Source: a virus (taxonomy: Duplodnaviria > Heunggongvirae > Uroviricota > Caudoviricetes). Taken from it: 27,260 nt of DNA. Location of the stretch: the IMG/VR virus record IMGVR_UViG_2541047905_000014. One strand, given 5' to 3'. The notes under the pieces are model-generated. The model was not told where the DNA came from and made no database searches. It saw only the letters and a list, made by a program, of their open reading frames with translations. The translations under genes and the position numbers were made by a program. This document shows, one piece after another, positions 1,422-18,725 of this stretch (the first letter of the stretch is position 1; the number at the start of each line of letters is the position of its first letter).

Positions 1422-3893
1422 TTAAAAATCAGCCTGATTTGGGATCAGTTTTTGCCAGATAGCTGAAACGTATTTTGCCTGGTAACGGGCGTCATCAAGT
1501 GCATTATGGCGCTCACCTTCGAATGGAATAGCCGTTCTGGCATCGAAGTCTATGGCTTTCCCCAGCTCAACGATTGTGCGTACATCGCGATCGTTGTAGT
1601 AACGCCACGGGCAGGGGATCCCCTGCCGTTCGTATGAACGGCGCAAAATCGTGTTGTCGAAGTTGGCTCCATTTCCCCAAACCTGAACAAAAAATTCACC
1701 GGAGTTTTCGTCGATAAATTCCCGCAATTGTAACAGTGCATCATCTAACGGGATTTCATCGGTCATAATGGCAGATTGCGCTTCGCGTGATTGCTTAAGC
1801 CACCATTTAATGGTGTCCCGATCAATGACTCCGCCAGCAGTTTCCAGATCGATAGTCTTACTAAATTCCGGTCCCATATCTCCGGTTTGCGGATCGAAAA
1901 ATATTGCACCTATTGAGATGATCGGGGCATCAGGATTTTTTCCCATGGTTTCAAGGTCGATCATTAGATGGTCACACGTCCTGCTGGTGGATGTGATTTC
2001 TTGATGACCGTTCACCTTAATTGAGTGATCTGCCGTCTCGCCAGTTTCATTATCGCTATCGTGATGCTGATTGCCGCCAGTGTTCTCCTTGTGTGGATGT
2101 TCAGCGCCTTCCATTTCCTCCGGATCATCTTCCTGAACTTCAGGCTGATACTCTTCATCGAATGTTTCCTGGTATGTTGCGTCGCCCATTACCGCGCCAC
2201 AATCAGGGCAGTTGCCGCCGCCGGTCTGACCGCAGGCGGTGCAGACTTTTTCCACTTCCTGTTGCGCCACTGATTCAGGCTGTTTCGTTTCTGGCTCGTT
2301 TTGTAACGCATTTGGGTTGTTTTGTTCCGCTTTCTGGTCGTTCTGTTCCGTTTCTTGCTGGTTCTGGTTCACAGAATCGCGGGTCTGGTTCCCCTTAACC
2401 CATTTCGGATCATTCGGGTCGCTAATCCCTTCAACAAATTCACCACGTGATACTGCAAGCAGTTCATCGGCGTCAGGCTGGCTGATATTGGCTGCCTGCA
2501 TAATTTTGTTTACTTCGTCAGCGGTAACTTTTACTGACCCTGGTTGTGCGGTCGTGTCAGATGCACCAGTATTTTGTTGTGAACCTGAGTATGTACCGTT
2601 TTTGCGGGCGAAATATTCTTCTTTCGTGATTTCAGTAGCCCCAGCAGACAGCGCCTTATCCAGACCAGAAAGTTTGTTTGCGCGACCGTATTTTTCGCCA
2701 TCCTTGTCGGTGAAGAGGAAGTAGAACGGCCCCTCACGTTCTACAGATGGTTCGACTTCCACTTTGCATTCGGTTTTTTCGTTGTCCGGAATTGCCGTTT
2801 CCACTGCATCAGTTTCTGGTACTGGCGACGAGAGAGTATCAGTTGCGCTCTGATTTGTTCCTTCATCTTCAAACACGCCCTTTGTAGTCAGGTATTCAGT
2901 AATGTATTTGTTCAGTGCCACAGGGTCTTTGTGAATGTCGATCGGACGTTCACGGACAAGGCCAAAAATAGTCTGGCGGTCGTAGCGAAGGGCATCAGGC
3001 TGTTTGCGCATTGATGCCGAGATACGCTTCCAGTCTTCGCGGTCGTTGTCGATAACTTCATTTTTTGCCCAGCGATGGATGCTGCCGTCAATGTTTCCGG
3101 CATCCACATCACCAGGCCAGAGAGCGTAGGCCAGTTCGTCATCCAGTGTTTTCCATGTCTGCTTGTATTCGCGATGAATGGCAGCAATGACCGGGTTGAT
3201 TTTTCCTGTTGAATTTTCAGTGTGCTGTTGATTGGCTCTGGCGCGGGCGAGATCAACAACAGACGTGTATTTTCCGGCTTCCTTGCGTTCACCTTCGCGA
3301 CGTTTTTTCCAGATGCGCATCTCTGCCTGAATTTCGGGCCATTTGGCACCAGGCTTACATTTATGCTTAACCCACCCGATGGCATGCAGCTTAAGCTCCG
3401 GATACATGGCGTTAACTTCTGGCATTTTCATCAACGCTTCAACGATATGTCCGTCGAATGTTGCCATGTCTTCCTGCAACAGTTCCTGCGCGCTAATCAC
3501 CATATCAACGGTGATGTTTTCACATGTGTCGAACTTAACCATGACAGCGTTCTGTACTTCAGGGGCCAGCTTGTCAAAAGTGACGTTCATCGGATCTGAT
3601 TCAGTCTCAACCGGGACAAAGGAAGCAGACGCCTCATCCCAGCGGTTTTCCTGCATATATTCAGCATCCCAGGAATCTAGGGCAGGGCGGGGTATACCGG
3701 GTTTATCCTCGCAGACAAGAAATTTATAAGCGCAGTCCTGAGCAGCCGGATAATGTTCCAGGAATTGCCAGTGAAATTTTGCGCGGGCGCGACGTTCATC
3801 ACCGGCTTCAATGGCAGTGGCTACAGCGACTGCACCTTCTTCCTTTATTGCCTGTTCGTCCGGAATGGCGGCGCAAATAAAGACTTTACTCAT
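1422..3893 (-). CDS. Large prophage protein with C-terminal DEDDh 3'-5' exonuclease domain (YdfE-like putative exonuclease)
   Basis: 823-aa ORF. The C-terminal ~180 aa show Exo I (MIDLETMG), Exo II (WGNGANFDNTIL) and Exo III (HNALDDARYQAKY) motifs of the DnaQ-like family. Centre is a Q/N/E/T-rich low-complexity linker containing CTACG...CPDCG, a Cys4 zinc-ribbon-like motif. The N-terminal ~400 aa are unassigned. Confidence 0.85.
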   Translation of the reverse strand: MSKVFICAAIPDEQAIKEEGAVAVATAIEAGDERRARAKFHWQFLEHYPAAQDCAYKFLVCEDKPGIPRPALDSWDAEYMQENRWDEASASFVPVETESDPMNVTFDKLAPEVQNAVMVKFDTCENITVDMVISAQELLQEDMATFDGHIVEALMKMPEVNAMYPELKLHAIGWVKHKCKPGAKWPEIQAEMRIWKKRREGERKEAGKYTSVVDLARARANQQHTENSTGKINPVIAAIHREYKQTWKTLDDELAYALWPGDVDAGNIDGSIHRWAKNEVIDNDREDWKRISASMRKQPDALRYDRQTIFGLVRERPIDIHKDPVALNKYITEYLTTKGVFEDEGTNQSATDTLSSPVPETDAVETAIPDNEKTECKVEVEPSVEREGPFYFLFTDKDGEKYGRANKLSGLDKALSAGATEITKEEYFARKNGTYSGSQQNTGASDTTAQPGSVKVTADEVNKIMQAANISQPDADELLAVSRGEFVEGISDPNDPKWVKGNQTRDSVNQNQQETEQNDQKAEQNNPNALQNEPETKQPESVAQQEVEKVCTACGQTGGGNCPDCGAVMGDATYQETFDEEYQPEVQEDDPEEMEGAEHPHKENTGGNQHHDSDNETGETADHSIKVNGHQEITSTSRTCDHLMIDLETMGKNPDAPIISIGAIFFDPQTGDMGPEFSKTIDLETAGGVIDRDTIKWWLKQSREAQSAIMTDEIPLDDALLQLREFIDENSGEFFVQVWGNGANFDNTILRRSYERQGIPCPWRYYNDRDVRTIVELGKAIDFDARTAIPFEGERHNALDDARYQAKYVSAIWQKLIPNQADF

Positions 3894-3985
3894 TTTGTTT
3901 TACCTCATTACAGATTTAAGGGTGAACAAATCCCTGCCATTGCTGGCATATAAGAATGAAACCGGATATTTATTACGGAACTGTT

Positions 3986-4177
3986 TTAAAGACCTGCCGG
4001 GATTTCGTTATTATCCTGGTGAATAACTTTATCGACCGGGTAACAGTTACCGGGAATTTTCTGTTCGGTTGCTGCAGTCACACACTCCTGCATTGTCCTG
4101 TGAACACTGACTGCAATATCAACTGGCTCTCCGGAAACAAGAAAAACTGTCAGAACAAGTGCAAATGCTGTATTCAT
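3986..4177 (-). CDS. ydfD: YdfD-like small protein with N-terminal hydrophobic segment (63 aa)
   Basis: Internal ATG at 4177 is preceded by AAGGA at 8-nt spacing. The ATG overlaps the dicB stop (ATGA), indicating translational coupling. Size and position directly downstream of dicB match Qin ydfD from memory. The six-frame ORF extends further 5' but that stretch lacks an RBS. Confidence 0.65.
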   Translation of the reverse strand: MNTAFALVLTVFLVSGEPVDIAVSVHRTMQECVTAATEQKIPGNCYPVDKVIHQDNNEIPAGL

Positions 4178-4362: not shown

Positions 4363-4540
4363 TATCGCGTCCTCAACAATGAATTTTGTGATGCAGTGCC
4401 TGGTGCCTCCAGGTGACGTTAACCAGTTAACAATTAACGCCGGGTTAGTTGATGCTCGTTACGCCCGTAAAATACCGCCTTACTGCTTTAACTGTTCCGC
4501 GTGCGCATAGCCGCATTCACCGCATCACAAAATTCACTTT

Positions 4541-4598
4541 AAAAAGGGCGGCAGAGCAGTCACGGAGTAAAACTGATACCGCCAAATGTCACCAGAAA
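4541..4598 (-). ncRNA. dicF: DicF small RNA (antisense regulator of ftsZ and other targets)
   Basis: Minus-strand sequence TTTCTGGTGACATTTGGCGGTATCAGTTTTACTCCGTGACTGCTCTGCCGCCCTTTTT matches remembered DicF with one substitution, including the GGCGG...CCGCC terminator stem and U-tail. It lies about 180 nt upstream of dicB, as in Qin. Confidence 0.8.
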
Positions 4599-4933
4599 AT
4601 TGATAACAGAGGGCGTTGTAGCGGGGTTGTCACTTAAGCGTATGGTCAACCTGACAACCCGGTGCATTTTCTGGAGCAATGGAGGAAACCCCAGCCATAC
4701 TTACCGCCGCGCCATTTCGCGGAGTGCCACAACCGGAAGCGCACGGTCGAACTAAATTTAACGACACCGTACAGAGAGACCAATTTCGCCGTGCGCTTTC
4801 GCGTTATGCCCTGACTTTTCAGGGACATATCCTTTCAGTAAACTGTCAGTGCCGGATGCTCACCCGTGTCCGGCGCACGCACTCCACCTGACCAGTGGAG
4901 AACTCCTTAATTACCAACCCTCAGGAGGGTGAA

Positions 4934-5212
4934 ATGGATAAAAAGCAAATTGAGGCCCTGCAATCTATTATTGAAGAACAAGATGAAGCTATCAGGATTC
5001 TTTCATATCGCACTGATATGATACTAAATATGCTTTCTGCATTAACGGCTGCGCTTGGTGGTACAAAAACAAACGTATACCGCGAAGTTGTTATTCAACA
5101 GATAGATAAATTTGAAAAAACCATACCAGGTATTAATGCTCATCTTGCAGAACAAGAGAAAGACCATGCTCTTATGGCAATTTCTTCAGTAGCTCTCCCG
5201 AAAGTTGAGTAG
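4934..5212 (+). CDS. Hypothetical small protein (92 aa), low-GC, antisense to the early-left operon
   Basis: Strong RBS AGGAGGGTGAA immediately before the ATG at 4934. The ORF is markedly AT-rich compared with its flanks. Its 3' end overlaps the convergent 133-aa gene by 41 nt. The six-frame ORF starts at a GTG at 4895 with no RBS. Confidence 0.45.
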   Translation: MDKKQIEALQSIIEEQDEAIRILSYRTDMILNMLSALTAALGGTKTNVYREVVIQQIDKFEKTIPGINAHLAEQEKDHALMAISSVALPKVE

Positions 5213-5573
5213 TTTTAATTGTTGTTTTGAAATAATCACTGCTTTCACATTTGAGTGATTTCATGGCAATCCAAATGCGGGCCTCTGTGCCTGCATTTGG
5301 TTCCAGTTGCTGTAGACGTTTTGCGTCTTCCAAAAGTAAGGCGATAATGTGTTTCAGCTTCTCATCATTTGCTTGATTCTTGTTTTCAGGCGAATTCTGT
5401 CCGCCGAATAGGCGCTTCTCTTCATACAGACCTATAAAGGCACGACGCACGTTACCGGATATAGTATCGATGGTTTCCTTTTCTACAGTACTCAGGTCAA
5501 GAGTCGCCAGTTGAGAGCGAACCACATTCGCTGCCATTTCCTGGAATGGCATTGGTAAATCTTTAAATTCCAT
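5172..5573 (-). CDS. Hypothetical protein (133 aa)
   Basis: ORF in the same orientation as the ydfABC-dicF-dicB operon, with a GAGG RBS 7 nt upstream of the ATG at 5573. No recognisable motif. Confidence 0.6.
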   Translation of the reverse strand: MEFKDLPMPFQEMAANVVRSQLATLDLSTVEKETIDTISGNVRRAFIGLYEEKRLFGGQNSPENKNQANDEKLKHIIALLLEDAKRLQQLEPNAGTEARIWIAMKSLKCESSDYFKTTIKTTQLSGELLKKLP

Positions 5574-5595
5574 TATTAGCCTCGTTGGTTAGCTA

Positions 5596-5814
5596 TTAAC
5601 GTGGGTATGTAACCATTCTGGCAATGCTTAATGCCGCTGCTTTTTCCAGCCTGGTGATATCCTGCTCCAGAGCGGACAGATTTTCAGCCTGCTTAGTCCT
5701 GGCTTCATTGGCCCATTTCAGATCCTGCACTGCATTAATTTTCTGGCGCATCCACTCATAAAGTTCATCATCGGTATAGTCTGGCGCGATGATGACGGGT
5801 TCTCGTTTCTGCAT
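5596..5814 (-). CDS. ydfC: YdfC-like small protein (72 aa)
   Basis: 72-aa ORF with GAGGA RBS. Size and position (third gene of a ydfA-ydfB-ydfC run upstream of dicF/dicB) match Qin from memory. The sequence identity is not verified. Confidence 0.6.
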   Translation of the reverse strand: MQKREPVIIAPDYTDDELYEWMRQKINAVQDLKWANEARTKQAENLSALEQDITRLEKAAALSIARMVTYPR

Positions 5815-6382: not shown

Positions 6383-6844
6383 CTACTGGTTACGTTTCTT
6401 TAGTGCCAGCATGTTCTCGAAGGCTTCCTCGTAGAGCTTGTTTAGTCCACGTAGCTGGTTAAGGAGTTTGGCTTTTTCTGACGCAGGTAGAATCTCGAAG
6501 AGGTTAAGTAACTCTGCCTGTTCTTCATTGACCAGCCTCCATCCTTTGCCTGAAAAGTTATCATCATAAGTATCTGATGATCTTACATAATTCATTAAGT
6601 CTTTAAGGTCTTCTCGAATGTCCTCTGGTTTTACCTTTAACAGAGCCGCAAATTTTAGCGCAGCGTCGGTATTTACCGGTATCTTGCCGTTCAGATACTG
6701 GCTAACGGTGCCTTGAGATTCGAATCCCAACAACTCAGCCGCCAGCTCTTGAGTCAGCTTCAGCTCTTTTTTTCTTGCATTCCATGCGGCTTTTAAATTC
6801 TTGCTCGCTTCTGGAGTTGCAATCACTTCGCGTGTTTTTTTCAT
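6383..6844 (-). CDS. HTH (XRE-family) prophage repressor, RacR/DicA-like, no LexA-type peptidase domain
   Basis: 153-aa ORF with an N-terminal helix-turn-helix (LTQELAAELLGFESQGTVSQYLNG). It is divergent from a Cro-like gene across a 107-bp AT-rich intergenic region. The C-terminus has no S24 peptidase motifs. Confidence 0.8.
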   Translation of the reverse strand: MKKTREVIATPEASKNLKAAWNARKKELKLTQELAAELLGFESQGTVSQYLNGKIPVNTDAALKFAALLKVKPEDIREDLKDLMNYVRSSDTYDDNFSGKGWRLVNEEQAELLNLFEILPASEKAKLLNQLRGLNKLYEEAFENMLALKKRNQ

Positions 6845-13955: not shown

Positions 13956-14157
13956 ATACAGCGAACGCCATTGGTTTAGTTGGATATTTACTGTGCCGGA
14001 CAAAAACGGTTTGCGGGGAAATCTTAGTTAAGTAGAATAACTGCGGGTGCTTGAGGCTATCTGTCTCAGGCATGAACACCAAAAGGCAGATAGAGAAAAG
14101 CCCCAGTTAACATTACGCGTCCTGCAAGACGCTTAACATTAATCTGAGGCCATATCT

Positions 14158-14217
14158 ATGCGACACATAGAGATTAGCCTCTTACGGACCGAAAGGTCAA
14201 GGAGAAGCAGGCTATGA
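14158..14217 (+). CDS. mok-like leader ORF, translationally coupled to hok
   Basis: 19-codon ORF whose TGA overlaps the hok ATG (ATGA), as expected for mok/hok coupling. Too short to confirm by sequence alone. Confidence 0.35.
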   Translation: MRHIEISLLRTERSRRSRL

Positions 14218-17578: not shown

Positions 17579-17654
17579 GGCCCTTTAGCTCAGTGGTGAG
17601 AGCGAGCGACTCATAATCGCCAGGTCGCTGGTTCAAATCCAGCAAGGGCCACCA
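17579..17654 (+). tRNA. ileZ: tRNA with CAU anticodon, ileX/ileZ-like (tRNA-Ile2, lysidine-modified) rather than tRNA-Met
   Basis: Cloverleaf: acceptor GGCCCTT/AAGGGCC, anticodon loop CTCATAA, T-loop GGTTCAAATCC, encoded CCA. Close to E. coli ileX by memory. Confidence 0.85.
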
Positions 17655-17754: not shown

Positions 17755-17828
17755 GCGTTGTTAGCTCAGCCGGACAGAGCAATTGCCTTCTAAGCAATCG
17801 GTCACTGGTTCGAATCCAGTACAGCGCG
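17755..17828 (+). tRNA. argN: tRNA-Arg (UCU anticodon)
   Basis: Acceptor GCGTTGT/ACAGCGC, anticodon stem ATTGC/GCAAT with loop CTTCTAA (anticodon TCT), T-loop GGTTCGAATCC. Confidence 0.85.
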
Positions 17829-18295: not shown

Positions 18296-18688
18296 ATACA
18301 TATCTGGATTATCACTTGTTACGGTAAAAAGTGATTGCTTACTGTTTTTGTGAGTGGCATTGCAGCAGCCGGATAATGTCAGTGCTGGCTGACGGTGTGC
18401 TGGTGGCGGGTGTGGTGGTTGTTGCTTTCCCGTTGCTGAAAAAGAAAACGCCAGACTGTTAGCCGGGTATCAGTTAGCGGGAGAAATTTTTAAATACTTC
18501 ACAATTCAGGCGGTTGACTGTTGTCTGGTTTGCGGGGAGTTTGTTAAAAGAAACTGGCATGGTGAATCCCCCTGTGCGGAGGGGCAATCAGCGAGTAGGT
18601 ATATGGGATAATCGCGGATTCAGGTGCTGGTACTGAATTCACCGGGAGGCACCCGGCACCATGCAATGGCACATAGCGCCACTCTCCA

Positions 18689-18725
18689 GCCCCTCTCCGG
18701 AGGGGCTGTTTATATTGATTTTGTC
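18689..18725 (+). terminator. Intrinsic terminator closing a roughly 400-bp ORF-free, GC-richer segment
   Basis: GCCCCTC-TCCG-GAGGGGC followed by TGTTTATATTGATTTTGTC. Confidence 0.5.

Follow-up and report, generated by a model that had tools for sequence, protein, structure and literature searches.

A small gene that faces backwards in the early-left operon of an Escherichia coli prophage appears to be one of several unrelated genes that start from the same place, behind the same leader. The stretch of DNA analysed here (the window: all 27,260 nt of IMG/VR virus record IMGVR_UViG_2541047905_000014) is an E. coli Qin/Rac-like lambdoid prophage whose region of interest is identical to that of strain 118UI, where ompW adjoins it. 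Its minus-strand early-left operon runs in the order helix-turn-helix (HTH) protein, DUF1391 protein, ydfB, ydfC, a 133-amino-acid (aa) gene, DicF, dicB, DUF1482 and a large exonuclease. On the plus strand, between ydfC and DicF, lies a 92-aa gene (4934..5212; WP_000358769, phrog_18692), for which RefSeq gives a coding sequence with the same ATG. We read this gene, with belief and doubt about evenly balanced, as one allele of a polymorphic slot for accessory genes that is set antisense in a repressor-controlled early operon of enterobacterial temperate phages. It is a new, uncharacterised allele of a known arrangement, the antisense early-left accessory gene of prophages (compare sieB and ymfI), and the particular arrangement beside dicF, a shared leader with swappable open reading frames (ORFs), was absent from the literature searched.

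The interval between ydfC and dicF measures 998 nt in the window and 341 nt in K-12 (L003). The initial annotation had taken about 1 kb here to be extra DNA, a GC-rich stretch included, but a four-way alignment of the window with K-12, strain 2013C-3033 and E. coli 042 reduces the insertion relative to K-12 Qin to ~656 bp (~4922..5577). It is a single clean indel that ends at the Shine-Dalgarno sequence (SD) of the 92-aa cargo gene on one side and 4 nt past the start codon of the 133-aa gene on the other. The GC-rich stretch lies outside it: positions 4598-4919 are 86-87.5% identical to the K-12 ydfC-dicF spacer and are present in 4310 of 5426 complete E. coli genomes, the set to which all genome counts given here refer. 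The two genes themselves are as first described, 4934..5212 (+, 92 aa) and 5172..5573 (-, 133 aa), a convergent pair in the ORF list whose 3' ends overlap by 41 nt (5172..5212). Since the 92-aa gene occurs in 127 genomes and the full pair in 124, the suspected presence/absence island is confirmed. So is the portrait of the plus-strand gene as low in GC, placed antisense to the early-left operon and provided with a ribosome-binding site of its own: its GC content is 0.366 (4934-5171), against 0.489 for the window, 0.536 for the leader and 0.546 for 4640-4930, and a strong SD, AGGAGG, stands at 4923-4928. RefSeq labels the products of both genes hypothetical proteins.

The same point in the genome receives quite different genes in other prophages. 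IMG/VR was scanned for one hairpin of the leader (hairpin C, described below), and the sequence downstream of it was parsed in 131 places. The conserved leader ends ...GGAGAACTCCTTAATTACCAACCC-TCAGGAGGGTGAA, and in ~75 of the 131 places it is followed directly by the ydfC stop region, as in K-12. Otherwise it is followed by a member of at least five unrelated families of plus-strand ORFs, all of which start from the same SD, TCAGGAGGGTGAA. These ORFs are the 92-aa gene with its 91-aa relatives (MSTEN..., MGFDV...), a 77-aa gene (phrog_10348), a 73/74-aa gene (phrog_7249) and a 63/69-aa gene (phrog_2605). The 77-aa allele is carried by 650 genomes, O157:H7 among them, the 91-aa allele by 198, the 92-aa allele by 127 and the 73-aa allele by 88. 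Wherever the convergent partner could be read, it overlaps the cargo at the 3' ends by 11-41 nt. Searched against PHROGs and defence models, the slot cargos match only PHROGs of unknown function and no defence model. Pfam, PHROGs, PADLOC and NCBIfam likewise give the two proteins of the window pair nothing beyond PHROGs whose function is not known.

Several observations bear on individual occupants. The commonest, the 77-aa gene (WP_000920491; L015 1835-2068, +), faces a partner of 135 aa with its own C-terminal core (L015 2046-2453, -), and the two overlap by 23 nt. Strain 2013C-3033 (L004 2700-3000) has a homologue of the 133-aa gene without the 92-aa gene, and its slot is taken up by an unrelated sequence of ~300 nt. 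This sequence has GGAGG-ATG as its start, and its reading frame breaks off (MQVDIISPVTDPYACAH*) and gives way to a different one; it is probably a decayed cargo allele. Around the slot in other prophages stand further plus-strand genes, namely YmfI (in e14), a 57-aa gene, a GhoS-like gene and a DUF1883 gene. In one Rac-like prophage (L021 388-1759), plus-strand genes annotated as a GhoS-type antitoxin and a DUF1883 protein lie between a truncated YmfJ-core gene and kilR, and a RelE/ParE pair is found further up the early-left operon of that prophage.

The 92-aa gene itself is real and under purifying selection, because dN/dS against its Salmonella homologue (72% aa identity) is 0.23, calculated from non-overlapping codons only. 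The differences from the Salmonella gene number 20, 11 and 32 at the first, second and third codon positions, so that third positions are enriched. In a word-indexed search of 5.8 billion proteins the homologues formed 22 clusters, all from E. coli or Salmonella, and a full HMMER scan of 1.84 billion representatives gave four distant members of 90-93 aa with 33-44% identity. After a profile search the family stands at ~45 clusters, with Klebsiella oxytoca added and all from Enterobacteriaceae; none of the ~45 carries a name or a Pfam domain. Its length stays within 90-98 aa, distant homologues keep length and motifs at 24-44% identity, and the invariant positions include R26, R50, E75-K76 and S85. 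The 91-aa slot protein beginning MSTEN is a distant member of this family (hhalign probability 96%, E 2e-9). YmfI and the 74-aa cargo were also considered as relatives, and both proved unrelated on comparison.

The product is predicted to be a small three-helix protein, with helices at residues 3-41, 49-59 and 69-84 of an AlphaFold2 model (pLDDT 76). Pfam, NCBIfam and PADLOC give nothing at threshold for it, fold searches found no match, and the protein accessions yielded nothing in the literature. The Klebsiella oxytoca homologue P0144 (40% identical; L012 5001-5276, L013 415-690) is convergent with the integrase of an island, which also encodes a TacA1 antitoxin and a type II restriction-modification system; ~1.4 kb without a called gene precedes P0144.

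The neighbouring 133-aa gene (5172..5573, -; WP_000394529, phrog_1363) has to be set apart from the cargo. The initial annotation had treated both genes as an acquired module, which holds for the 92-aa gene and not for this one. The DNA of its N-domain is found in ~1400 genomes and its core is homologous to YmfJ of e14, which makes the gene a mosaic early-left gene and not foreign cargo. PHROG matches split the protein into an N-terminal half (aa 1-62) and a C-terminal half (aa 69-117), the latter covered by phrog_12693, phrog_30817 and phrog_32391. In an alignment of variants, the homologues agree over aa 1-55 (the N-domain, nt 5409-5573) and then continue in at least three different C-terminal cores. 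The core found in the window (aa 69-108, nt 5250-5369) is of YmfJ type and matches the N terminus of YmfJ from K-12 e14 at 30 of 40 residues (75% identity, E 3e-20), a similarity that is limited to this core, as N-domain and tail are not shared. The AlphaFold2 model of the 133-aa protein has an overall pLDDT of 58, too low for a fold search, and only the N-domain is modelled with confidence (~80). The tail is read antisense to the 3' end of the cargo. Partners resemble each other in their last residues only, and they do so because these are read antisense to the conserved C terminus of the cargo (...SSVALP). In e14, ymfJ comes first among the early-left genes, and the SOS response induces it late (PMC11002266).

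The left flank of the slot is a conserved, structured and ORF-free leader (4598..4921), which corresponds to the ydfC-dicF untranslated region of Qin-type prophages. In the literature it figures as the 3' untranslated region (UTR) of ydfC, a long region with dicF inside it (PMC5069750), from which RNase E and RNase III cut DicF (PMC5069750, PMC9438474). In the dicBF operon of K-12 Qin the untranslated region abuts ydfC directly, whereas in the window and ~1/5 of genomes a plus-strand ORF comes next, for which the end of the region provides the site of translation start. The leader retains 72-76% identity in P2/186-like Salmonella prophages, which have another terminator hairpin in place of DicF. 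Because it is conserved even there, the leader is a module in its own right, with a variable small RNA (sRNA) at one side and a variable plus-strand ORF at the other. Copies of the leader lie at 4598-4933 of the window and at 2866-3180, 4560-5003 and 3590-4003 of loci L143, L144 and L146, respectively. The sRNA at the minus-strand end is interchangeable: DicF in the window, KilS in Rac and the terminator hairpin GGCGGGAATGGAATCCCGTACTTTTT in the P2/186-like Salmonella prophages. The variants other than DicF have a common stretch, ATTGCTGTGTGTAGT, before the hairpin, from which the Salmonella Rac-like copy differs by one base.

The initial annotation saw no convincing ORF between 4640 and 4930, and indeed no ORF there is conserved. 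A 60-aa ORF (4646-4828, -) was considered as a gene and rejected, as it is intact in ~20 of ~120 leader copies and the indels that disrupt it are not multiples of three. Along its whole length this ORF aligns with phrog_8854 (E 5e-34), and some genomes have it annotated; that family was probably built on spurious calls in non-coding DNA.

The two strands of the leader fold unequally, and its cargo-proximal part does so significantly on the plus strand only. A long central hairpin with a variable loop (4731..4804), in which AAGCGCACGG (4737-4746) pairs with CCGTGCGCTT (4789-4798), shows compensatory changes at four pairs of its stem, and its fold z-score is -4.9 for the plus and -2.4 for the minus strand. 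Folding of the plus strand (4809..4900) then gives hairpins B (4809-4814/4819-4824), C (4849-4859/4866-4876) and D (4882-4887/4895-4900), which we propose form the 5' leader of the cargo mRNA. Beyond them, RNAalifold pairs an anti-SD, CUCCU (4903-4907), with AGGAG of the SD (4923-4927), a plus-strand helix spanning 4903..4928, and all cargo alleles have this initiation region in common. The plus strand of 4800-4936 has a minimum free energy of -51.3 kcal/mol (z -4.25, with none of 200 shuffles as stable), against a z-score of -1.29 for the minus strand, and the DicF-proximal part (4598-4735) gives +0.62 for the plus strand and -1.80 for the minus strand. Hairpins B and C hold G.U pairs that on the minus strand would be C.A, and at one pair in these hairpins U.G occurs as a step from C-G to U-A. 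Hairpin C is found again before the L014 homologue, which is 40% identical; there an A-U pair has changed to G-C and the U.G pair is kept. When more diverged sequences are included, hairpin D covaries at two pairs, and the closing pair of the anti-SD/SD helix is A-U in five sequences and U-A in four. No plus-strand role for the ydfC-dicF untranslated region was found in the literature searched.

The sieB genes of lambda and P22 are superinfection-exclusion genes, and in the Rac prophage of K-12 sieB is the positional equivalent of the 92-aa gene. The order in Rac is racR, ydaG, ydaF (DUF1391), sieB on the opposite strand, the sRNA KilS and the division inhibitor gene kilR. There sieB (+) overlaps ydaF (-) by 4 nt, and slot and orientation are as in the window. 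KilS, an experimentally verified sRNA (PMC8175672), is together with its flank homologous to the DicF region and part of the leader. SieB is nevertheless unrelated in sequence to the 92-aa protein, which leaves the SieB models of Pfam and NCBIfam unmatched, and upstream of Rac sieB is a sequence of its own, without hairpins C and D and without the shared SD. The e14 prophage has a further convergent pair at the start of its early-left region, ymfI-ymfJ, with a 3' overlap of 63 nt (L009), like the pair in the window. The first 40 residues of YmfJ are those that are 75% identical to the 133-aa core, but YmfJ has no N-domain and another tail; YmfI (113 aa, NCBIfam YmfI_phage) bears no relation to the 92-aa protein, and no dicF-type leader was seen in e14.

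In other respects the 92-aa gene resembles the morons of lambdoid phages, such as bor and lom of lambda, which are present in some related prophages only and deviate in base composition. Leader and gene occur in 4310 and 127 genomes, respectively, the indel against K-12 is clean, and the GC content of the gene differs from that of its neighbours. On this likeness the 92-aa gene would be expected to be expressed from the prophage. It differs from morons in that no private promoter or terminator was detected for it, in that it borrows a leader and SD common to unrelated alleles, and in that it lies antisense inside an operon, not between operons. The immunity genes of pore-forming colicins are likewise small and lie on the opposite strand, convergent with an SOS-induced gene, which gives them constitutive expression independent of the partner. 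Here, in contrast, nothing speaks for cognate specificity, a membrane protein is absent and the sequences are not similar.

These comparisons suggest how the slot might work. In the lysogen, with the early operon repressed, the cargo would be transcribed through the structured leader, and sequestration of the SD would set the level of its translation. On induction, strong convergent transcription of the early operon would silence the cargo through transcriptional interference and cleavage of the duplex by RNase III, which is the logic of an excludon. The two ORFs overlap by 41 nt with no terminator between them, and the convergent excludons in an RNA-seq list include ymfI-ymfJ and sieB-ydaF (PMC12288877). 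The 92-aa protein might be a small helical binder that benefits the lysogen, and our best guess at its role is interference with superinfecting phage, favoured because sieB holds the same slot in Rac; it is only by this position of Rac sieB that exclusion or defence is plausible for the gene. The 133-aa neighbour would be an ordinary early-left protein, with a tail merely set by the overlap.

A number of points weigh against reading the 92-aa gene as an allele of such a slot with such a leader. The covariation comes from few and related sequences and is supportive, not decisive. The helices are symmetric between the strands, and only the G.U pairs and the z-scores call the strand. The leader is kept in many prophages without cargo, and its conservation may be owed wholly to DicF biogenesis. 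The chief weakness is that a crude scan of 4400-4934, which weak or non-sigma-70 promoters could escape, found no plus-strand promoter of sigma-70 consensus. Directly after 5212 there is no plus-strand terminator, the sole terminator-like site being ~400 nt downstream, at 5619-5636. The 92-aa protein resembles neither SieB nor any defence family, and tblastn found no match for it in 50,697 GenBank phage records. Concerning promoters more broadly, a scan of the window and four related loci gave none on the plus strand. In favour of the reading, a pL-like promoter (10/12) in L014 is directed into the 92-aa homologue, and a plus-strand terminator follows the gene. Two candidates picked by eye were too weak to claim: TTTTCA-17-TAAACT, and the stretch 'GTGGAGAACT' aligned with the extended -10-like TGGTATGAT of L014 and TGGTATCTT of L011.

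Some of these points would suit a cargo that is a lytic-phase gene, used for example in anti-defence or host takeover, whose expression after induction would come from read-through or from a promoter that escaped recognition, with its antisense orientation incidental. That no lysogenic promoter was found fits this account, as does the ~2 log2 rise of ymfI late in the SOS response (PMC11002266). Its orientation does not: the cargo opposes the early operon in every phage type examined and would thus meet head-on transcription exactly when it was needed. Phage inhibitors of host systems are typically small helical proteins, which again suits a lytic role, but sieB, the sole characterised occupant of the slot, is expressed from the prophage, and we consider a lytic-phase gene unlikely. 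It is also conceivable that the main product is an RNA, a plus-strand transcript that acts in cis as an antisense brake on leaky early-left transcription and keeps dicF and dicB silent, the ORFs being secondary. The plus-strand leader, a highly structured sequence, is complementary to the precursor of DicF; each cargo reaches into the 3' end of the early gene; and expression of dicBF is toxic (PMC5069750). Against this, the dN/dS of 0.23 and the retention of length and motifs in distant homologues show selection on the protein; moreover, most prophages that carry dicF have no cargo, and we regard the RNA as a most improbable main product.

The two genes could instead form a cognate toxin-antitoxin or toxin-immunity module, in which the variable C-terminal part of the 133-aa protein is the effector and the 92-aa protein inhibits it specifically, being expressed constitutively from the other strand in the manner of the immunity genes of pore-forming colicins. 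The initial annotation had named toxin-antitoxin among its examples, and the layout, in which the N-domain is conserved while the C-terminal halves and the small gene after them vary, does recall polymorphic toxin loci. In E. coli the 92-aa gene accompanies this C-terminal variant of the 133-aa protein in 126 of 127 genomes, and a RelB-like antitoxin model matches below threshold (15.6 bits; cut-off 50). Against this, ~43 genomes have the C-domain of the 133-aa protein without the 92-aa gene, and cores and cargos combine freely, because of which a cognate pair is unsupported. The YmfJ core is found with 92-aa, 74-aa and 69-aa cargos, with YmfI or without an intact cargo, and the 'EKYFLDLMD' core with 91-aa and 73-aa cargos. 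Members of the 92-aa family, for their part, face the 133-aa protein, a 71-aa protein consisting of the YmfJ core only (in Salmonella Rac-like prophages) or, in P2/186-like prophages, either an HTH protein (171-214 aa) or one of 109 aa; others have no overlapping partner and stand beside cI-type repressors or integrase. The same 41-nt overlap occurs with different partners in Salmonella L005 and in P2/186-like L010, L144 and L145. What is constant is orientation, as across Qin-like, Rac-like, P2/186-like and other elements the family is either antisense to the early operon or convergent with cI or integrase. A type II toxin-antitoxin system is further contradicted by the convergent genes, which form no operon, by the lack of a threshold hit to toxin or antitoxin families for either protein in Pfam, NCBIfam and PADLOC, and by the lack of cognate covariation. 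A type I system, whose toxin is a small hydrophobic membrane protein, as a rule of fewer than 60 aa, paired with an antisense RNA, does not fit a 92-aa protein modelled with three amphipathic helices, nor the failure of Rfam to find an antitoxin in 4480-5260, and a structured leader with SD sequestration is a trait merely shared with such systems. A cognate pair is thus improbable.

It was also considered that the 92-aa protein might be a diverged enzyme or pseudoenzyme of the AroQ-type chorismate-mutase fold. The family member P0143 matches NCBIfam NF005894 at E 6.4e-5, four of eight members match this model, the predicted topology is long-short-long helix in ~90 aa, and hhalign aligns an N-terminal L-x-x-L-R-x-x-I-x-x-x-D motif with PheA and TyrA. 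The scores behind these matches are low: where the cut-off is 73 bits, the window protein reaches 13.4 and P0143 22.7, and the hhalign probability against PheA and TyrA is only 1.6-3%. The window protein also has Gln at the position of the motif Arg. The lead was dropped, since hhalign gave at most 3%, Pfam CM_2 did not match and fold searches returned no chorismate mutase, and we attach hardly any credence to it. Residues ~5-30 of P0143, P0144 and P0147 read L-R-x-x-I-x-x-L-D-x-x-L-K-H-L-x-V-R, similar to the AroQ N-terminal signature, and the first Arg of this signature-like stretch is lost in the E. coli and Salmonella members.

The reading of the 92-aa gene as one allele of an antisense accessory slot can be carried further, to a bolder version that we think doubtful but worth stating. 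The ~330-nt leader would be an expression platform with two faces, mobile among unrelated temperate phages, giving sRNAs of DicF/KilS type from its minus strand and serving as an SD-sequestering 5' UTR on its plus strand, and the 92/91-aa family would be a new class of exclusion, defence or lysogeny-maintenance proteins.

The remaining features of the region are those expected of its neighbours. DicF, with its terminator hairpin, lies at 4546..4597 (-; a full-length match, 1-52, to Rfam RF00039 at 77 bits, where the gathering score is 48), next to the slot and outside the insertion. The conserved right flank of the slot is ydfC (5596..5814, -; RefSeq annotation and phrog_1744). At the head of the region is the HTH protein (6383..6844, -; ORF and RefSeq annotation), presumed from its position, by analogy with DicA and RacR, to be the repressor of the early-left operon. 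In 4480-5260 Rfam matched DicF alone at E values up to 5, and eight related loci yielded no hit at gathering thresholds. In other parts of the window Rfam found the sok antitoxin RNA beside hokD (14045-14216, 106.7 bits), STnc100 (18528-18717, 132 bits) and two tRNA genes (17579-17651 and 17755-17828). A tRNA scan of the related loci for attachment (att) sites found none.

DicF and DicB are well studied, and the long untranslated region before dicF has so far been treated only as a precursor. In ~1/5 of E. coli genomes the end of this region is a common start site for swappable, backwards-facing small genes, an arrangement that recurs in Rac-like and P2/186-like prophages and of which sieB is the sole characterised occupant. 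Two annotations change with it, as the 133-aa gene becomes an early gene of YmfJ type with a mosaic make-up, and phrog_8854, the family of the 60-aa ORF, is, on this evidence, not a gene. If the leader is the platform we describe, it would mature interchangeable sRNAs from its minus strand and control interchangeable small lysogeny proteins from its plus strand, and the 92/91-aa factors would be switched off by the early operon reading through them. The slot thus offers a defined place in which to seek prophage functions that benefit the lysogen, along with a testable model of how such functions may be switched off upon induction.

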